A DNA stretch of 36,569 nt from a virus (taxonomy: Duplodnaviria; Heunggongvirae; Uroviricota; Caudoviricetes): IMG/VR virus record IMGVR_UViG_2721755726_000003, one strand, 5' to 3'. Positions 935 through 36,569 of this stretch are shown piece by piece (position 1 is the stretch's first letter; each line of letters begins with the position of its first letter). Made by a program: the position numbers and the translations under genes. The notes under the pieces were generated by a model. It was not told the DNA's origin. It saw nothing but the letters and a program-made list of their open reading frames with translations, and did not search any database.

Positions 935-2620
935 GTGAATATAAACGTCGCCGAATTGTTAAATGGGAATTACATTCTGTTATTATTTGTGGTCCTCGCG
1001 CTTGGGCTATGTCTCGGAAAGTTACGACTTGGTTCGATCCAACTGGGTAATTCCATTGGCGTTTTAGTCGTATCGCTGTTATTAGGCCAACAACATTTCA
1101 GCATTAACACCGATGCGCTTAATCTTGGCTTTATGCTGTTTATTTTCTGCGTCGGGGTCGAAGCCGGACCGAACTTTTTTTCCATTTTTTTTCGCGATGG
1201 GAAAAATTACCTAATGTTAGCACTGGTGATGGTTGGCAGTGCGCTGGTGATCGCCTTAGGGTTAGGTAAGCTGTTTGGCTGGGATATTGGCCTGACGGCC
1301 GGTATGTTAGCAGGCTCTATGACGTCGACACCGGTTCTGGTCGGTGCTGGCGATACACTGCGTCATTCCGGCATGGAAAGCAGGCAGCTCTCACTGGCAC
1401 TGGATAATCTGAGCCTCGGGTATGCCTTAACCTATTTAATCGGTCTGGTGAGTTTGATTGTTGGTGCGCGTTACTTGCCGAAATTGCAGCATCAGGACTT
1501 ACAGACCAGCGCCCAGCAAATCGCCCGCGAACGTGGCCTGGACACTGATGCCAACCGTAAGGTTTATTTACCGGTGATCCGCGCCTATCGCGTCGGCCCG
1601 GAGCTGGTGGCCTGGACCGACGGCAAAAATCTGCGTGAACTGGGTATTTATCGACAAACCGGCTGCTACATTGAACGTATTCGACGTAACGGGATTCTGG
1701 CAAATCCAGACGGTGATGCCGTGCTACAAATGGGCGATGAAATAGCGTTGGTAGGCTATCCCGACGCCCATGCCCGACTCGATCCCAGCTTCCGTAACGG
1801 TAAAGAAGTTTTCGATCGTGACCTTCTCGACATGCGTATCGTCACTGAAGAAGTGGTCGTTAAAAACCATAACGCTGTAGGTAAACGTCTCGCACAACTG
1901 AAGTTGACCGATCACGGTTGCTTCCTTAACCGCGTCATTCGTAGCCAGATTGAGATGCCGATAGATGACAACGTCGTGCTTAACAAAGGTGACGTTTTAC
2001 AAGTCAGCGGTGATGCCCGTCGCGTAAAAACCATCGCCGATCGCATCGGCTTTATCTCGATTCACAGCCAGGTCACTGACCTGCTGGCATTTTGCGCCTT
2101 CTTTGTTATTGGGCTGATGATCGGGATGATCACCTTCCAGTTCAGCACATTCAGTTTCGGCATGGGGAACGCTGCCGGGTTGTTATTCGCCGGAATTATG
2201 CTGGGCTTTATGCGTGCTAACCACCCGACCTTCGGTTACATTCCGCAAGGTGCATTAAGCATGGTGAAAGAGTTCGGCTTGATGGTGTTTATGGCAGGCG
2301 TTGGTCTGAGCGCCGGTAGCGGTATTAATAACGGCCTGGGCGCGATTGGCGGTCAGATGTTGATTGCCGGATTAATTGTCAGTCTTGTGCCCGTGGTTAT
2401 CTGTTTCTTGTTCGGTGCTTATGTATTGCGAATGAACCGCGCACTGTTGTTCGGCGCAATGATGGGCGCACGCACCTGCGCGCCGGCAATGGAGATCATC
2501 AGTGATACAGCTCGCAGTAACATCCCTGCGCTGGGCTACGCGGGCACCTACGCAATCGCCAACGTCCTGCTGACGCTGGCAGGGACAATCATCGTCATGG
2601 TATGGCCAGGATTAGGATAA
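935..2620 (+). CDS. ybjL: putative AAE-family transporter YbjL
   Basis: 561-aa ORF with GTG start, duplicated membrane domains flanking soluble TrkA-C-like region; recognised as YbjL. Confidence 0.9.
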
Positions 2621-3074: not shown

Positions 3075-3164
3075 TTTTCGAGCTCTCCCCATTTTTGCTA
3101 AATTCACAATAATGATACCGCATTATTCCATTTTGCAAACTTAAAAGTTCTCCATTGCGAAGAA

Positions 3165-24649: not shown

Positions 24650-26059
24650 TTACTCATCTACTCTGATTTTTTGTTTTTTATTATTTTGAGTTAAGACATT
24701 TATGGTAATAGATGTATACGGATGAAAGTCAGGCACTATACTTTTAACCTCTCCATTTTCAAGAAAATGATGTGCTATTGAAGGAAATAAATCAGGATCT
24801 ACAGGATATTTAGCATTAGGATTATGATACATATTTAAACCTTCTGCCCATGTTTCTGTAATATCGCCTTCTTTCACTTCAAAACTAAATGCTGCTGGAT
24901 ATAATGCCTCTGGGTCATGATCATGGCAGTAACCACTCCTAAATAATCTAAGGTCACTTCTTCCAAAACCAGCCAGTTTTCCCATCCGATTAAACTTCGA
25001 TATAGTACCACTATTAGAACTAAGGACGGCCGAAATATTTTCAGACTCATCCAAGAAGAAAAAGCCTGAAGGAATTTCCTTTTTCTCAAATTGATGCGAT
25101 ATAATTTTCTTAGTTGCTAAACTGTAACATCCATCTTCAGATTTAACATGCTCATAGCGAATACCATAAAGATACTGCCAAAGTGCACTATGGGACCAAA
25201 TCATAGAGTTTGGTTCATGAAAATCAGCAATTGCGAAAATTAAAGGATTCCCCTTAACATGTTCTAGATCCCAGTATCGAGTTTTCTTTTTCAGTTTAGA
25301 ATAGAGAGAACTTCCAAATTTAATCGGCATATAATTCTCTATTTTCTCTAGCAATTCTTCCTTACTTTTAGGTTCAGATAGCATTTCAGATGATTGATTA
25401 ATATCATTCCCTGTTGGATTAACCGTTACAGCTTCAATGCAAATAGTATTACCATACTTACGTGCCACATAATCAGGGGCATTAAACTGCCTATCTAGCC
25501 AAAAGTGTTCCTCTCGTAAATATGCGAAAAGATATAACTCCCATAGCCGGGCATCAAAACCTGTTGTCTGAAACTGCTCTATAAAATTCCCGTCGACATC
25601 CTCAAAATGATTCATCATTTCCTTGATTATCCCTGTTGCAGGCGACCAGTTCGCGTATTTACCAAATAATGAAAAATGATGATGAAGTTTATCTGGTGTA
25701 ACTATAGGTGTGAATAAATCCATTGCTTTATAAGTTTCATCACCTTGTGGAAATACTTTTACGTTTAATTTAGTATGCTTCCGCATTAATTTCTTTAGTT
25801 TTGCTCGTGCAGAATTCATTTCTGAAACACTAGTAAATAGGTCAATACATCTATATCTCCCACTTAAGTCTCTTGCTAAAACAATACCGCTATAATCTTC
25901 ATCGATTTGATCCAATAATAGTGCCCCTAGCAGGAACTCTCTCGGACTACAGTACCACTCAAACTCATAGCCTAAAAGTTCAGTATTTGGCATTCTGGTC
26001 CAATCAACAAAAGCATTAAACCTCTCTTTACTCATTTTTTTTATATCAAGAAAAGACAT
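24650..26059 (-). CDS. hypothetical 469-aa protein, AT-rich accessory gene (candidate defence/exclusion cargo)
   Basis: Long uninterrupted ORF, ATG start with GAGGT SD, visibly AT-rich against GC-rich phage core; no family recognised by eye. Confidence 0.75.
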   Translation of the reverse strand: MSFLDIKKMSKERFNAFVDWTRMPNTELLGYEFEWYCSPREFLLGALLLDQIDEDYSGIVLARDLSGRYRCIDLFTSVSEMNSARAKLKKLMRKHTKLNVKVFPQGDETYKAMDLFTPIVTPDKLHHHFSLFGKYANWSPATGIIKEMMNHFEDVDGNFIEQFQTTGFDARLWELYLFAYLREEHFWLDRQFNAPDYVARKYGNTICIEAVTVNPTGNDINQSSEMLSEPKSKEELLEKIENYMPIKFGSSLYSKLKKKTRYWDLEHVKGNPLIFAIADFHEPNSMIWSHSALWQYLYGIRYEHVKSEDGCYSLATKKIISHQFEKKEIPSGFFFLDESENISAVLSSNSGTISKFNRMGKLAGFGRSDLRLFRSGYCHDHDPEALYPAAFSFEVKEGDITETWAEGLNMYHNPNAKYPVDPDLFPSIAHHFLENGEVKSIVPDFHPYTSITINVLTQNNKKQKIRVDE

Positions 26060-27083: not shown

Positions 27084-27317
27084 TTAATGCAGCCAGCTGT
27101 CGTCCTCCCACACCTTCTGCATAATTTTCATCACTTGTTTTCTTTCTTCATCCAGTTGCAGTCCGGTTAGTTCCACACCGTTAGAGCTACCTTTGCGAAT
27201 GCGAATTACCGTTTTGGGATACAGGGGGCGCAGATTGCGGTAAAGCTCGGATTCAAGTGCGTCCAGGGTAGACTGGCTAATCTTCTGCTCTTTATCGATC
27301 ATTATTTCAATGCGCAT
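27084..27317 (-). CDS. DinI-family protein
   Basis: 77-aa product MRIEIMIDKEQKIS...KVWEDDSWL resembles E. coli DinI (MRIEVTI...WESADDWF); start at internal Met with GGTGA SD, track ORF extends to 27389. Confidence 0.7.
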   Translation of the reverse strand: MRIEIMIDKEQKISQSTLDALESELYRNLRPLYPKTVIRIRKGSSNGVELTGLQLDEERKQVMKIMQKVWEDDSWLH

Positions 27318-27327
27318 AAAAGTCACC

Positions 27328-27516
27328 TCAGCTGATGACATCCATTGAGCGGTTGTATTCGTGGCTTCTGATTTTTGCCATGAGTTCATCAGTCAATTCA
27401 GAAACCCACTGCAGAGCCAGCCCCTTCTCTTCATCACTACACTCACTAGCCGCTACAAGCTTAAGAAAAAAATCAATGCGCTGGAGCTTCAAAGACTCCA
27501 AAAAATAGTCCTGCAT
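27328..27516 (-). CDS. hypothetical 62-aa SOS-operon protein (possible N-terminal part of a Tum-like antirepressor)
   Basis: ATG with GGAGG SD immediately downstream of LexA box; stops 11 nt before DinI-like start. Confidence 0.5.
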   Translation of the reverse strand: MQDYFLESLKLQRIDFFLKLVAASECSDEEKGLALQWVSELTDELMAKIRSHEYNRSMDVIS

Positions 27517-31461: not shown

Positions 31462-31803
31462 TTAATTCGGCATGGTTAGCCGTCTGGGAAATAAGCTCAC
31501 CACTGCACGAAAATGATTCATTGCTTTAATCAACTCCCGCTTTTCGTCAGTGGTCAGCTCATTAATGCTGATGCTATGACGTTCAGCTGGAATTTTTGCC
31601 ATAAAGAATATGGCAGCCAGTGCCCGTTTATTTTGTTCATTATTGATATCCCGTGGATCACGCATATCTTTAATAAACCGCTCAAGCTCTGACTCAATAT
31701 TCAAACCAAAAACTTTCGCCCTTAACTCCGCAATATGATTAAGTCCATTCAGGCGTTCACCGGGTCTTAATGGAACAGTCGCCGCAGCGCCTTCAATAGC
31801 CAT
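31462..31803 (-). CDS. hypothetical early protein
   Basis: 113-aa ORF in early operon, position comparable to 186 dhr region. Confidence 0.5.
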   Translation of the reverse strand: MAIEGAAATVPLRPGERLNGLNHIAELRAKVFGLNIESELERFIKDMRDPRDINNEQNKRALAAIFFMAKIPAERHSISINELTTDEKRELIKAMNHFRAVVSLFPRRLTMPN

Positions 31804-31967
31804 TTGTTCCCCCGTTTTTTCGTAGATAGTTCTGCCAGCAATTCATCTTGTGAACGGCACGGATGCCAGCGTTTTCCATCCTCACCCATGATCCAGCCGT
31901 GACCGTAGTGCATTGCCGGGCTTTGCTTTACCAGCAGCGATGCAAATGATGGTTCTTTCGTCAGCAT
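31767..31967 (-). CDS. hypothetical small early protein
   Basis: Start taken at internal Met just after cII stop; position comparable to 186 fil; low confidence. Confidence 0.4.
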   Translation of the reverse strand: MLTKEPSFASLLVKQSPAMHYGHGWIMGEDGKRWHPCRSQDELLAELSTKKRGNKWLLKALRRLFH

Positions 31968-31974
31968 AAGCACC

Positions 31975-32484
31975 TCACAGCAAACCGAATGAAGCACCGA
32001 GGCCAGTCACGGTATCAACTGCACTCGCCATCGCAGGATTAGTCTGTAAACGGGCCTGCAATGAAACAGCGGCCAGCGCCATCAGTCGTGTTACAGAGTT
32101 AATGCTGCTGATAGCATCACGACGACCTGCACTGGTTTTTACATCGCCAGATACCGCACCTGCAGCAACACGCCCGATCTCTGCGGTTGCACTCATGACG
32201 TAATGTGGCAGTTTCTCTTTTGCCACCTCATTAATCGGTACGCATGGCAGGCAGTGAATCTGAGCCAGAAAACCATCTACCAGCGTTGAATCTTCAGTCA
32301 GATCGGTAAGCAGCCAGATTTCTGGTGCGGTTAATAAATGAGGTTGAGCCGGGTTCAGCTTGTTCCGCAGAATCTGCACATTCATGCCAGCACGTTCTGC
32401 CAGTTGCACCAGGTTGTGGCGCAGCGCGAATGCACGACAGGCTTCATCAAAATGTGGATGTTTGGAAACTTGGTAATCAAACAT
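31975..32484 (-). CDS. cII: CII-like lysogeny establishment regulator (186 type)
   Basis: 169-aa product starting [19 protein letters not shown], recognised as resembling phage 186 CII; start at internal Met of track ORF. Confidence 0.7.
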
Positions 32485-32516
32485 AGTCGACACCCCTGAT
32501 GTATCCCAAAATGGAA

Positions 32517-32738
32517 CTAGTTGAATACAACATTGCAATCAGTAAGTGCATCAACGGTAAGAGCAGCAAGGTTGATCATTACCTTTTCTCTTTTCTTGTC
32601 TTTCCGAAGGCGATGACGAGGGATGCGACCATCAGCCAGCATATCGTTGATTGTGTCGATAGAAAGACCAGTAAGTTCGCTATAACGCTCAATTGTGACG
32701 TGCGGCGTATTCAGAGTTATTGAAATGTTAGGGGTCAT
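32517..32738 (-). CDS. apl: Apl/Cox-like excisionase and switch regulator
   Basis: 73-aa basic protein first in the early operon, divergent from cI; AGGAG SD; start at internal Met. Confidence 0.6.
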
Positions 32739-32826
32739 GATGCAACATCTCCTATTGGCTTGTGGTGAGCCGGTATTAATCGTGACGAAAACTTCACAAA
32801 ACGGAGAATAGGTTCGCATAAAGAAT
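32739..32826. promoter_or_regulatory. lysis-lysogeny switch region between apl and cI
   Basis: Only 88 bp separate divergent start codons of apl and cI, so promoters and operators must overlap here. Confidence 0.4.
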
Positions 32827-33768
32827 ATGTCAACTAATAAAATCACATTTCGCCATATTGAAGATCATCTGAAAGCCATGGTCATGCAGAATCGAGGAGG
32901 GCAAAAAGTCATTGAGAGAATACTCATGGCCTATGGTTTCAAATCACGCCAAGCATTCTGTAACCACCTTGGTATTTCACAAAGTACAATGGCTAACAGA
33001 TATGCACGCGATACCTTCCCTGCTGATTGGGTTGTTATATGTTCAATGGAAACTGGCGCATCAATCGAATGGTTAGCATTTGGTTTAGATGCTGAAGAAG
33101 GAGTGCCAGTTCCTTCGCCAGAACGGCATGCTGAAAAACAGTCTGCAGATGAATTTTGCAATGAAGTTCACACCCCCACGATAAAGTTCGATAATGAAAA
33201 CCACATGGATTTCACTCGAGGGGGTAAAGCAGCAATAGAGCGAATTGTTAAGGCTTACGGTTACAAAACGCGCCAAGCCTTAGCCGATCACCTTGGTATC
33301 TCAAAAAGCACATTAGCTACACGATACATGCGAGACATTTTTCCGGCAGACTGGATCATCCAATGCTGTTTAGAAACAGGAGTGTCTCTCGAGTGGTTAT
33401 CTTTTGGTAAGGGGCATTCCAATCAAACAAAGCTAAGTGGGTTGCTTACATTAGACTGCTATGATCTACGTGACGGCAAACTTACTGATCAAAGAGAATT
33501 AATCGTTTCGAGCGAAATTTTACCTCAAAATTTAAAACATCCCTATATAGTTAATTCCGCAAATGATTCATATATCATTAGCAAAGAGGAGTATCTTAGC
33601 GATGGTCTATGGTTAGTATCTATTAACGGAGAATTTACTTTTAGAGACATATTTAAACTTCCAAACAATCGCATCCGCGTTGAAAACACAAAATATAGCT
33701 TTGAATGCGATAAAGAAGATTTGGAATTTAATAATAAAGTTAAAGGAATAATTAGAAAAAGGGTTTAA
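32827..33768 (+). CDS. cI: CI immunity repressor with tandemly duplicated N-terminal DNA-binding domain
   Basis: Two about 67-aa repeats (residues 22-88 and 130-196) each resembling the 186 CI N-terminal domain, then a C-terminal domain. Confidence 0.7.
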   Translation: MSTNKITFRHIEDHLKAMVMQNRGGQKVIERILMAYGFKSRQAFCNHLGISQSTMANRYARDTFPADWVVICSMETGASIEWLAFGLDAEEGVPVPSPERHAEKQSADEFCNEVHTPTIKFDNENHMDFTRGGKAAIERIVKAYGYKTRQALADHLGISKSTLATRYMRDIFPADWIIQCCLETGVSLEWLSFGKGHSNQTKLSGLLTLDCYDLRDGKLTDQRELIVSSEILPQNLKHPYIVNSANDSYIISKEEYLSDGLWLVSINGEFTFRDIFKLPNNRIRVENTKYSFECDKEDLEFNNKVKGIIRKRV

Positions 33769-33770
33769 CA

Positions 33771-34820
33771 ATGAGCTTTACGAAAACTATTGAATTTGCA
33801 AACTATACCTTAAATTTTGGAGAGGACAAAGTTCTCTTAGATGCTTTTGATTGCATTGTTTTTCCTTCATTTTTCGCACAAAAATACGTTAGAAAATTTA
33901 AAGATACAGAATATTTCTTTACTGACACAAAAATTATTACGTTAGATACTACAGATTCAGATTTTATTGGTCCTATAGTTCCAACAATTGCATTGTGTGG
34001 CCGCATTATAAAAAAGACCATATTTAAACGAGATCAAATATTTCAAGATGGTCAATTAATTCGAGATCACAGGACGCTAGAAAGTCACCCCAGCTCTATT
34101 TTTATTCTTATGCTTAATGAGCACAGATTAATGCTTTGCAAAGAGGTTTCTGGAGCCCCTACCCTAGAAGAATTTGAAAATACTAGCAAGTATTGCCTTG
34201 CACAGCGATATAATTCTTTTGTGGATTACGAAGTAAAAAAAAATAAAAGAATTAGAAAGAAAAAATCATACATTGATCGACTGTATAAAAAAGATATTTA
34301 TCGTAAACTAGGAGCCCCCAAATTACGGGTTACCCCCTTAACAGACCCAAGATCATTGAGCAATTTTGTTGAACTCTTTTCTGTTGTTAATAGATTATCA
34401 ATTGAGTTATTGCCAACAAATAGTGAAAATATATCTCTTGATGGCTTCTGGAGGAAAATTGAACAAGAAAAAGAAGAACTTAATAGTAGTAAAGCTCAAT
34501 TAGTATACACAAATAAAAATGAAGATGGTTTAAATTCTGAGGCCGTCATTCAAAAAACAACAAGTGCAACCCGAATGGCCAACTCTAAAGTAATTATCAG
34601 TGGTAAAGATGAACACGGAGCAAGGCTATCAGGGAATAATGATAGTTTTACTCTAAAAGCATCAAGGCCACAACTTAGTTCTGATTTGGAAAGAGCTGCT
34701 CAAGAGGCGTATTCTGCATTCACAGAATTAAAGGATGAAGGAAATATTATTATTCCAGAACGTGAAGATTATACTAAAATTTTTTCCAAGTTAACATCAA
34801 TAATTTCTAGGTGGCTATAG
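33771..34820 (+). CDS. hypothetical 349-aa soluble protein, component A of cI-linked accessory cassette
   Basis: ATG 2 nt after cI stop; AT-rich; Lys-rich central segment; no recognised motif. Confidence 0.7.
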   Translation: MSFTKTIEFANYTLNFGEDKVLLDAFDCIVFPSFFAQKYVRKFKDTEYFFTDTKIITLDTTDSDFIGPIVPTIALCGRIIKKTIFKRDQIFQDGQLIRDHRTLESHPSSIFILMLNEHRLMLCKEVSGAPTLEEFENTSKYCLAQRYNSFVDYEVKKNKRIRKKKSYIDRLYKKDIYRKLGAPKLRVTPLTDPRSLSNFVELFSVVNRLSIELLPTNSENISLDGFWRKIEQEKEELNSSKAQLVYTNKNEDGLNSEAVIQKTTSATRMANSKVIISGKDEHGARLSGNNDSFTLKASRPQLSSDLERAAQEAYSAFTELKDEGNIIIPEREDYTKIFSKLTSIISRWL

Positions 34821-34821
34821 T

Positions 34822-35427
34822 ATGAAATATACATTCAACCCAGAAGATCTGACCAAAGAGCGATCTTTGCATGATGTTTACAAATTAACTAAAAAAATAA
34901 AGGTCAATTCATTTGACTTTTATTTCACATTATTGTTAGTGATATTATTATCTATTAATGCTTTTTGTCTATCTTCATCACCAGAGTTAATTTCATCTAT
35001 TAGACAATGGACACCTTTAGTATTCGGATTCACTACAACAACATTAGGTTTTTTAATTACTGGATTTACAATATTTGCAACCATAAATAAACCTGAACTT
35101 TTCCTTTCATTAATGGAGTATAAGCATCCATTATACGGGATAAGTTACTTAAAATATGTTTATGGTGTATTTATGAGAGTATTTATATATTTCATATTTT
35201 GGTCTGTTATCTATCTTTTAGTCCTTCTTTTCGGGCAAGAAAATGGATTGGCTACAAAATTACTCAGAGCCTTAATGTTTTCTCATTGCACTAAAGTTGT
35301 TGGAGTTCAAATACTATATATACTCGTAGGAAGCAGTGCAGTGTTCCTTGTATTAACTTTAAAAACTTTCCTGTTCAATATTTATGCTATGTTAATGCAA
35401 TCTCTACGCTGGGAAGTAGAAAGATAA
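34822..35427 (+). CDS. hypothetical 201-aa membrane protein with four predicted TM helices, component B of cI-linked accessory cassette
   Basis: ATG 1 nt after upstream stop with AGGTGG SD; four hydrophobic stretches of about 20 residues; AT-rich. Confidence 0.7.
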   Translation: MKYTFNPEDLTKERSLHDVYKLTKKIKVNSFDFYFTLLLVILLSINAFCLSSSPELISSIRQWTPLVFGFTTTTLGFLITGFTIFATINKPELFLSLMEYKHPLYGISYLKYVYGVFMRVFIYFIFWSVIYLLVLLFGQENGLATKLLRALMFSHCTKVVGVQILYILVGSSAVFLVLTLKTFLFNIYAMLMQSLRWEVER

Positions 35428-35436
35428 AATTAACCT

Positions 35437-35516
35437 CAATGTATGAATCTTAATTCATATACATTGACACTGGTTATACATACAGTAAAAATGCTCTCCA
35501 CTGGAGGGCATTTTTT
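35437..35516 (+). promoter_or_regulatory. int upstream region with imperfect palindrome, TTGACA hexamer and hairpin plus T-run
   Basis: Imperfect inverted repeat caatgtatgaat...attcatatacattg, perfect TTGACA at 35464..35469, stem-loop gctctccactggagggc followed by TTTTTT directly before int ATG. Confidence 0.3.
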
Positions 35517-36569
35517 ATGGCAGTACGAAAACTCACCACAGGAAAATGGCTATGCGAATGTTACCCCGCGGGACGTAGTGGACGTCGTGTGCGTAAACAA
35601 TTCGCCACCAAAGGTGAAGCTCTGGCTTTTGAGCGTCACACGATGGAAGAAACCGAAGCAAAGCCCTGGCTGGGTGAATCAGTGGATCGTCGAACACTGA
35701 AAGACGTGGTTGAGCTATGGTTCAAACTACATGGTAAATCTCTGACAGCTGGGCAGCATGTCTATGACAAATTGCTGTTGATAGTTGACGCTCTGGGCAA
35801 TCCCCTTGCAACCGATCTCACCTCTAAAATGTTTGCCCACTATCGAGATAAACGCCTGACAGGAGAGATCTACTTCAGCGAAAAATGGAAGAAAGGAGCA
35901 AGCCCGGTCACCATTAACCTGGAGCAAAGCTATCTTAGTAGTGTTTTTAGCGAACTATCCCGCCTGGGCGAATGGTCGTATCCGAACCCACTGGAGAACA
36001 TGCGAAAATTCACCATCGCAGAAAAAGAGATGGCATGGCTTACCCATGAGCAGATTGTTGAATTACTGGCTGATTGCAAACGTCAGGACCCAATTCTGGC
36101 ACTGGTAGTTAAGATATGCTTAAGCACAGGCGCACGCTGGCGAGAAGCCGTAAATCTTACTCGTTCACAGGTGACCAAATACCGAATTACCTTTGTAAGA
36201 ACGAAGGGGAAGAAAAACAGAAGCATCCCTATCAGTAAAGAGCTTTACGAAGAGATCATGGCGCTTGATGGGTTCAATTTCTTCACAGACTGCTATTTTC
36301 AATTTTTATCCGTGATGGAAAAAACGTCTATCGTGCTCCCTCGCGGTCAACTCACACACGTTCTGCGCCATACGTTTGCAGCGCACTTCATGATGTCGGG
36401 TGGAAACATCCTGGCCTTACAAAAAATTCTCGGACATCACGATATAAAAATGACGATGCGTTACGCACATCTGGCACCGGATCATCTGGAAACGGCGCTC
36501 CGTTTCAATCCTCTGGCAACGCTGCCAAGTGGCGACAAAGTGGCGGCAGCGGTTGGCATTACCCCGTAA
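35517..36569 (+). CDS. int: tyrosine integrase (P2/186 family)
   Basis: 350-aa ORF with C-terminal R...H..R...Y catalytic region (HVLRHTFA...MRYAHL); stop codon is last 3 bases of window. Confidence 0.9.
   Translation: MAVRKLTTGKWLCECYPAGRSGRRVRKQFATKGEALAFERHTMEETEAKPWLGESVDRRTLKDVVELWFKLHGKSLTAGQHVYDKLLLIVDALGNPLATDLTSKMFAHYRDKRLTGEIYFSEKWKKGASPVTINLEQSYLSSVFSELSRLGEWSYPNPLENMRKFTIAEKEMAWLTHEQIVELLADCKRQDPILALVVKICLSTGARWREAVNLTRSQVTKYRITFVRTKGKKNRSIPISKELYEEIMALDGFNFFTDCYFQFLSVMEKTSIVLPRGQLTHVLRHTFAAHFMMSGGNILALQKILGHHDIKMTMRYAHLAPDHLETALRFNPLATLPSGDKVAAAVGITP

Follow-up and report, generated by a model that had tools for sequence, protein, structure and literature searches.

Coliphage 186 offers a well-understood alternative to the lambda genetic switch: in repressors of the 186 type (CI), seven dimers assemble into a wheel able to wrap or loop DNA, an architecture that serves as a model of how DNA is wrapped and looped cooperatively. 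Besides the lytic promoter pR, to which three dimers of 186 CI bind, the wheel can also make contact with FL or FR (bioRxiv 10.1101/2021.10.29.466366; PMC8053113). The family norm is one helix-turn-helix (HTH) DNA-binding domain, a short linker and ~190–210 amino acids (aa). SOS induction in this family proceeds via a Tum antirepressor and not by self-cleavage with RecA. Here we analysed a 36,569-nucleotide stretch of Caudoviricetes DNA (IMG/VR record IMGVR_UViG_2721755726_000003; hereafter the window), in which positions 32827–33768 encode the immunity repressor, CI, of a 186-type switch. This protein departs from that norm by placing two HTHs, with a 39-aa extra linker, before one oligomerisation domain.

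Two described systems invite comparison. An engineered hybrid repressor that joins the N-terminal domain (NTD) of lambda repressor to the C-terminal domain (CTD) of 186 CI is functional, with foreign specificity (PMC8053113; PDB 7JVT). This hybrid resembles the present protein in setting a foreign HTH on a 186-type scaffold—a modular logic shared with the natural graft that we propose—but it replaces the native NTD, whereas the natural CI keeps its native NTD and has two HTHs per chain. An XRE protein of C. difficile phage phiCDKH01 likewise carries two HTHs in one phage lysogeny-regulator chain, although these belong to a different HTH family and lack a 186-type wheel domain (PMC11172241). 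Among 18 CI proteins from P2-like phages surveyed in 2011, only linkers or C-terminal domains are noted as being longer (PMC3448106), and our literature searches for a tandem-HTH CI of the 186 type and for phage 4LV2017, which encodes one, returned nothing relevant. The tandem architecture is common in databases, yet without description in the literature searched.

A common natural variant with twice the HTHs per wheel raises the questions of how a rim-fixed and a tethered HTH share operator choice, whether one repressor can carry two immunity specificities and whether new immunity types arise in one step via an operator-plus-HTH cassette, as opposed to slow co-evolution of protein and site. 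The variant may shed light on how immunity changes or broadens in phages, and would gain in interest should dual immunity or cassette-wise immunity switching prove true. Prophages with a tandem CI are frequent in clinical isolates of Escherichia coli, Klebsiella and Salmonella, and breadth of immunity shapes the entry of temperate phages (and their defence cargo) into a strain.

Architecture, spread and selection

The cI open reading frame (ORF) lies on the plus strand, starts with ATG and translates into 313 aa, against 192 aa for 186 CI, which bears out the length difference noticed in a first-pass annotation of the window (~190 aa for 186 CI in that account). Pfam placed Phage_CI_repr (PF07022) on the protein twice (protein E 2.5e-57) and Phage_CI_C (PF16452) once (aa 213–305, E 1.3e-19); PHROGs matched it to phrog_4, transcriptional repressor (E 9e-74), and its RefSeq label is ‘phage repressor protein CI’. 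When the N-terminal 110 aa were compared with the rest by BLASTP, aa 23–86 aligned with aa 131–194 without gaps (41/64 identities, 64%; E 3e-33). Together with the doubled Pfam domain, this repeat upholds the earlier claim of two copies of the N-terminal DNA-binding domain, here called HTH-1 and HTH-2.

A single-chain AlphaFold2 model, with 45 tandem homologues as input, had a mean predicted local distance difference test score (pLDDT) of 76. Each repeat was modelled as a five-helix domain (helices 25–85 and 133–193, pLDDT mostly 83–91), confirming an HTH fold in both, and the beta-rich CTD was also folded confidently. Residues 89–127 were disordered (pLDDT <50), and the predicted template modelling score was low at 0.37, which fits domains without fixed mutual placement. 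Among 48 tandem proteins the inter-HTH linker is 39–55 aa long, rich in S, N, E and P, and hypervariable.

Alignment with 186 CI, suggested by the same annotation, showed residues 10–185 of PDB entry 2FJR to be collinear with aa 136–309 (E 1.8e-28). As this covers HTH-2 and the CTD only, residues 1 to ~126 amount to an N-terminal addition. The CTD matched that of 186 CI in PDB entry 2FKD both by sequence (E 3.7e-12) and by Foldseek (TM score 0.92, root-mean-square deviation 1.5 Å); judged by homology and fold, it would dimerise and build a 186-like wheel. A Tum-like DinI-domain gene in the window adds to the likeness, and single-HTH architecture is the only tested respect in which the protein does not fit the 186 CI family, having an extra N-terminal HTH with its leader and a disordered linker of ~40 aa.

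An assembly or annotation artefact—a collapsed or duplicated repeat—has nothing to recommend it beyond the existence of a repeat, and we give it practically no credence: the coding DNA of the two HTH copies is identical at only ~63% of nucleotide positions, the identical gene recurs across numerous complete genomes and phage isolates that are independent of one another, 47 diverged clusters share the architecture and both copies are under purifying selection. The sequence divergence and this recurrence dispose of the possibility of an assembly duplication. The same protein was found in 10 complete E. coli chromosomes (98–100% identity) and in 13 records of Klebsiella phages, 4LV2017 among them (98–99% identity), while the junction segment of the window’s clade occurs in 58 of 5,426 complete E. 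coli genomes (about 1%; 70–100% identity at ≥80% coverage).

Among the 120 best-scoring homologue clusters at 90% identity, 47 have the HTH-HTH-CTD architecture (291–330 aa), 70 are single-domain and three are truncated HTH-HTH fragments. The 45 tandem clusters that were aligned stand for ~1,800 member sequences from Escherichia, Salmonella, Klebsiella, Enterobacter, Citrobacter, Kosakonia and Edwardsiella. An exhaustive search with one HTH domain against 1.84 billion representatives added further two-HTH proteins at only 33–49% identity, which indicates that the tandem arrangement is ancient; domain scans of two of these distant proteins, P0179 and P0222, gave HTH-HTH-CTD for each. Four other candidates (P0186, P0188, P0246 and P0206) were rejected as family members, being XRE or resolvase-type HTH arrays of other families with 4–10 stretches. 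The metagenomic P0186, P0188 and P0246 hold 4–6 tandem XRE-type repeats, each with a terminal ICREF..EWLR.GTGEMF motif that recalls the last helices of the CI HTH, and P0206 holds ten resolvase-type repeats.

Databases name every tandem form simply ‘phage repressor protein CI’, and current annotation, which treats all forms as just ‘CI’, is sometimes truncated or over-extended. In MK416009 (L070, positions 1–774) the annotation of a tandem cI at the record edge begins at an internal start, giving 257 aa; the single cI encoding P0037 is annotated too long, running into the upstream region; and the entries P0042, P0062 and P0098 include several HTH-HTH proteins without a C-terminal domain, possibly because they are pseudogenes or fragments.

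Purifying selection on both HTHs is strong. In a comparison of the window with a Salmonella tandem locus (L057), HTH-1 keeps 65 of 67 residues despite 29 synonymous differences, a ratio of non-synonymous to synonymous substitution rates (dN/dS) of about 0.008; the ratio is about 0.09 for HTH-2 and, nearly neutral, about 0.72 for the linker. Five further pairs within the clade gave 0.01–0.10 for HTH-1 and 0.09–0.18 for HTH-2, including the copy in E. coli E2348/69 described below, for which a pairwise ratio cannot isolate the branch after the gene lost its operators. Recognition-helix residues of both HTHs are invariant or nearly so in the 45-protein tandem alignment. With such low ratios and retained recognition helices, neither HTH is a decaying remnant.

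Origin of the two DNA-binding domains

The N-terminal part of the window CI has its closest counterparts in single-domain CI proteins of 207/208 aa, such as P0054 (208 aa, from the Salmonella diarizonae prophage L054) and P0078 (Klebsiella). They share with it the leader, HTH-1 and its recognition helix, the pR −10/−35 elements and the offsets of three operator words, but they join this HTH directly to a separate CTD of their own, whereas the window CI continues to a second HTH and a 187-type CTD. Its residues 1–88 are a near-copy of the leader and HTH of this class (HTH-1 is ~85% identical to the N-terminus of P0054), and blastn aligned positions 32793–33075 with L054 at 76% DNA identity. Residues 127–313 find their match elsewhere, in P0038 (187 aa), encoded by the single cI of a Kluyvera prophage (L056): they begin MDFTRGGK, against MDFNSGGK at the N-terminus of P0038, with 61% identity overall.

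The gene is of mosaic origin, and the boundaries of the inserted DNA are sharp. Only positions 31803–32785 and 33203–36241 of the window aligned with L056, which carries the same two genes downstream of cI and the same integrase. Homology resumes at 33203 (L056 position 2499), two bases ahead of the ATG corresponding to the start codon of L056 cI. The match to L054 and the break against L056 argue that operators, promoter, leader and HTH-1 were inherited as one unit. We favour, with a probability of about 0.55 for the whole account of origin and working given here, a chimera in which a cassette of the 207/208-aa CI lineage was joined in frame 5′ of a complete 187/196-type cI. Such a cassette would have comprised pR with three TCACA-N3-CG words, the 20-aa leader and the matching HTH, and the old N-terminus of the recipient gene would have become the end of the disordered ~40-aa linker.

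Domain-wise comparisons point the same way. HTH-1 of leader-type tandems has a mean identity of 71% to HTHs of the 207 class and 56% to HTH-2, and 99% of bootstraps place L207 closest to it among single-domain HTHs; for HTH-2, identity stands at 79% with the 196-aa class and at 67% with the 187/189 class. In the CTD tree the 207-aa class forms its own clade without L-type tandems, tandem CTDs mix with the 187/196 classes and the nearest CTD to that of the window CI belongs to the single-domain P0038. The 196-class leader motif K-x-P-N/I-E-I-x-I-N-P-N-Q-GGK stands just before HTH-2 in nearly every tandem, whatever its HTH-1 type, and the C-terminal end of the window’s linker, KFDNENH, is a diverged remnant of that leader. 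In five tandem loci, moreover, the 196-class operator word, found at +17 in single genes, lies exactly 22 nt upstream of HTH-2, where it reads as the footprint of an old gene start buried in the linker. Only the last ~15 linker codons resemble the 196-class leader; descent of the linker DNA from the 5′ untranslated region of an L056-type gene was rejected, since the local alignment score equalled the shuffle mean.

The first-pass annotation had called the two copies paralogous repeats. They are homologous domains, but the duplication in place which that term implies does not agree with the grouping of HTH-1 with the 207/208-aa class and of HTH-2 with the 196- and 187-aa classes. An in-place duplication of the HTH segment, with the 207-aa and 187/196-aa single-domain proteins arising later by loss of HTH-2 and HTH-1, respectively, could draw on the clear homology of the two HTHs (64% identity), on the shared motif before HTH-2 in nearly all tandems, which is compatible with one ancient event, and on divergent tandem lineages (33–49% identity) that show the architecture to be old. 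We nonetheless regard it as improbable: single-domain CI is the general state in the family (186, Xenorhabdus, Yersinia and others), CTDs of the 207 class form a clade of their own and are not nested among tandem CTDs, the block boundary in the DNA abuts a complete single cI with its start codon, and the +17 operator word of the 196 class survives before HTH-2.

A two-gene state in enteropathogenic E. coli O127:H6 E2348/69 (L068; NZ_LT827011.1 854094–857338, reverse complement) also speaks against duplication in place. One lysogenic operon there contains two consecutive cI genes: the first (L068 668–1237) encodes a 189-aa single-domain protein and has its own promoter/operator region; the second (1288–2211), 50 bp downstream, encodes a 307-aa tandem-HTH protein of the window’s clade and has no pR in front and no adjacent operators. 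This arrangement indicates that repressor modules do stack upstream of one another in these phages. In the tandem gene the word at +16 has decayed (TTAAAATTTAGCC) and the leader sequence I-T-F-R-H has become K-L-K-F-S-H. As leader and operator word have decayed exactly where pR is missing, the leader codons appear to be held by an operator constraint at the DNA level.

Predicted operators at pR and probable roles of the two domains

A sigma-70 promoter scan found a pR-like promoter (10/12 matches) whose −35 element overlaps the cI ATG. It is kept in L054, L057, L059 and L060 and is placed relative to cI as is the annotated pR of phage 186, the record of which lists three CI sites that extend across pR from the cI start codon, together with distal FL and FR; the predicted operators of the window match the positions of those pR operators abutting the cI ATG. 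The leader does double duty: ATG-TCA-AC overlaps the −35 TTGACA, and the codons for I-T-F-R-H form an operator word. The remainder of the leader evolves fast (dN/dS about 1.6, from few sites).

We surveyed operator words in about 65 loci, counting offsets from the cI ATG. The 207/208 class has TCACAWWWCG at −33, −13 and +16; the 196 class has CCCAAATGRGA at −42 and +17; and the pR words of L056 (187 class) are of the GCTCCAAAAG type. TCACAWWWCG stands at its canonical offsets in all 12 loci where an L-type first HTH abuts pR and in none of ~50 others. Exact copies occur only twice in the 36.6-kb window, at 32794 and 32843, both flanking pR; by number this is unremarkable (17 of 100 shuffles reach two) and the weight lies in their fixed placement. 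The middle site, the weakest of the three predictions in the window, holds the exact word in L054, L059 and L063, and the site within the leader is unchanged across diverged tandem loci abutting pR and lost in E2348/69. Operator word and HTH-1 thus co-vary: the word type at pR tracks the class of HTH-1 and not that of HTH-2, so that control of pR is most likely exerted through HTH-1. On this correlative evidence HTH-1 is most likely the pR-binding domain; it would bind the three words over pR, repress the lytic operon and set the phage’s own immunity type.

The first-pass annotation had further supposed that a single-chain tandem repressor would change operator geometry, and proposed a search for matching half-sites. 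Engineered single-chain 434 repressors do place two HTHs on the two halves of one operator. We found no operator with paired half-sites for two CI domains in the pR region, and the words and spacing at the window’s pR are identical to those of phages with single-domain CI of 207/208 aa. Given the unchanged operator layout and the long disordered tether (39–55 aa), a single-chain half-site mode is not favoured. Compared with 186, the window has direct repeats of TCACAWWWCG and no ATTCAC-N5-GTGAAT palindromes (none within three mismatches near the switch), and its two HTHs come from different CI lineages. The remaining suggestion, that immunity specificity could be affected, is plausible for the CI of a 186-type switch with two HTHs.

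HTH-2, with its intact and selected recognition helix, probably still binds DNA. More speculatively, its targets could be distal sites like FR or pB, or the operators of superinfecting phages of the parental class, which would widen immunity. We entertain, tentatively, a stacking of immunities, in which the tandem CI has dual specificity, HTH-1 acting on its own pR and HTH-2 on second-class superinfecting phages and/or distal sites. HTH-2 would then be displayed 14 times on the same wheel, operator-plus-HTH cassettes would move between phages as units, and E2348/69, whose lysogenic operon combines three types of HTH, would be an extant case.

A search for candidate distal sites turned up the word CAAAATGGAA, of which the window contains exactly two copies against 0.19 expected: one in the apl–cII spacer, where 186 has FR, and one in front of the B/Ogr-like late-activator gene, where 186 has pB. 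Both are conserved in phages of every CI class examined, and the word may be a family-wide distal CI site. As HTH-2-specific operators, the ATCCCAAAATGGAAC element at the apl/cII junction and the copy upstream of ogr were rejected, every CI class having both. A related copy of the word lies near 3088–3102 on the minus strand, and CAAAATGGAA resembles both class-specific pR words, on the theme TCNCAAA(A)YGGRA.

The reverse division of labour, in which the rim-held HTH-2 is the working operator binder and the tethered HTH-1 an accessory (for example a decoy or sensor for a Tum-like antirepressor, or a non-specific DNA anchor), strikes us as unlikely. HTH-2 and the CTD are admittedly collinear with a full 186-type CI, the recognition helix of HTH-2 is invariant across tandems, and a long disordered tether would suit capture or decoy, a Tum-like gene with a DinI domain being present. 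Yet the pR operator type follows the HTH-1 class in every locus examined, HTH-1 is under the strongest purifying selection of any segment, all recognition-helix residues included, and the window’s pR is without an operator of the 187 or 196 class.

It is similarly doubtful that HTH-2 is structural only, serving CTD folding, dimer geometry or wheel assembly in a repressor of single specificity with a long neck. An operator layout equal to that of single-domain L-class phages, the absence of an HTH-2-specific operator from the window and the lack of conservation of an internal element near the junction would suit such a role. Structure alone would not require that the surface residues S159, K160, S161, T162, R166, Y167 and R169 be invariant or nearly so in 45 tandems, however; the engineered lambda–186 hybrid works without the native 186 NTD; and E2348/69 keeps an intact tandem cI without adjacent operators. 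Because the surface recognition residues are conserved and that operator-less gene persists, DNA binding by HTH-2 appears more likely than a structural role.

Nor is there much to suggest that the gene yields two isoforms, with an internal start at Met127 (33205) giving a 187-aa CI beside the 313-aa form. Met127 aligns with the start codon of the L056 cI, and a 22-bp near-palindrome (33194–33215; ATGAAAACCAC/ATGGATTTCAC), unique in the window and conserved in L057, is centred on its ATG. The internal start was rejected and the isoform reading is very improbable: no Shine-Dalgarno sequence precedes Met127 (GATAATGAAAACCAC-ATG), whereas L056 has GGAGG, and the methionine gives way to Val (GTT) in L067 and to Ile (ATT) in L069, while other tandem lineages lack it. 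The near-palindrome is not conserved either; its loss in L067 and L069 led us to reject it as an intragenic FL-like operator.

Several observations weigh against the account given here, in which a grafted HTH-1 controls pR and HTH-2 retains a DNA-binding role. The nearest single-domain relative of HTH-2 is S-type in only 68% of bootstraps, and dS is near saturation, which makes the dN/dS values approximate. Operators and HTH-1 are linked in one recombination block, and co-inheritance alone could give their correlation. Dimeric HTH pairs would be expected to have dyads as targets, but the L-type words are direct repeats, and the window’s middle word (32814) is degenerate. A search of the window for an operator specific to the class of HTH-2 found none: 187-class (GCTCCAAAAG) and 196-class (CCCAAATGRGA) words are absent from it, pR included, and CAAAATGGAA, kept in every CI class, cannot be tied to HTH-2.

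Prophage context and neighbouring genes

The window is a complete-looking P2/186-like (Peduoviridae) prophage in which a cI–int operon opposes an apl–cII–fil early operon, in the same order as in annotated phage 186 (Table 1). On the early side, cI is followed by the apl/cox-like gene, labelled MerR family or hypothetical in RefSeq, then cII, fil and replication genes; on the other side lie two uncharacterised genes and the integrase. RefSeq labels the product of the DinI-domain ORF ‘DinI-like family protein’.

Table 1: Coordinates of the repressor gene, its parts and associated features in the window.
Feature	Position	Strand	Basis
cI, 313-aa tandem-HTH CI (HTH–linker–HTH–wheel domain)	32827..33768	+	ORF, Pfam, PHROG, RefSeq
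Leader, 20–21 aa (MSTNKITFRHIEDHLKAMVMQ)	32827..32889	+	Common to all L-class singles and L-type tandems
HTH-1 (aa 22–88), L-class type, recognition helix SQSTMANRYAR	32890..33090	+	Pfam, AlphaFold2 helices 25–85
Inter-HTH linker (aa 89–126), disordered, fast-evolving	33091..33204	+	pLDDT, dN/dS
HTH-2 (aa 127–197), recognition helix SKSTLATRYMR	33205..33417	+	Pfam, 2FJR alignment, L056 collinearity
C-terminal oligomerisation domain (aa 206–313), 186 CI wheel-domain fold	33442..33765	+	PF16452, 2FKD, Foldseek
Proposed grafted block (pR and operators, leader, HTH-1, linker)	32786..33202	.	Absent from otherwise collinear L056
pR-like early lytic promoter	32805..32833	-	−35 TTGACA 32833–32828, 17-nt spacer, −10 TATTCT 32810–32805
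Predicted CI operator a (TCACAAAACG), −33, over pR start region	32794..32803	+	Exact word
Predicted CI operator b (TCGCATAAAG), −13, in pR spacer	32814..32823	+	Two mismatches to word
Predicted CI operator c (TCACATTTCG), +16, within leader codons	32843..32852	+	Exact word
apl/cox-like gene (73 aa), first of pR operon	32517..32738	-	ORF with AGGAG Shine-Dalgarno, position of 186 apl
ATCCCAAAATGGAAC element, apl–cII spacer (position of 186 FR), candidate distal CI site	32503..32517	+	Word count, conservation
cII (169 aa)	31975..32484	-	PF06892 Phage_CP76, E 3e-42
DinI-domain ORF (101 aa), Tum-like candidate antirepressor, end of early region	27084..27389	-	PF06183, E 1.2e-22
GCAAAATGGAAT element, ~50 nt upstream of B/Ogr-like late-activator gene (position of 186 pB), candidate distal CI site	3125..3136	-	

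At the left boundary of the prophage, a 561-aa gene product resembling a host membrane transporter (935–2620, plus strand) adjoins the B/Ogr-like gene. At the right boundary stands the integrase (35517–36569, plus strand), followed in E. coli TUM2820 by rcdA–ybjJ. A 469-aa ORF without a Pfam match (24650–26059, minus strand), between the DinI-domain ORF and the portal gene, may mark a cargo position.

The slot between cI and int (33771–35427) encodes a protein of 349 aa, labelled DUF4747 in RefSeq, and a membrane protein of 201 aa; Pfam and PADLOC returned no match for either gene. The same slot in relatives (L057 3453–5223; L064 3116–5110; downstream of cI in L066–L069) holds differing cargo—GmrSD and HEPN, an AAA ATPase, a KAP NTPase or an ATP-dependent nuclease—and resembles a variable, defence-like hotspot.

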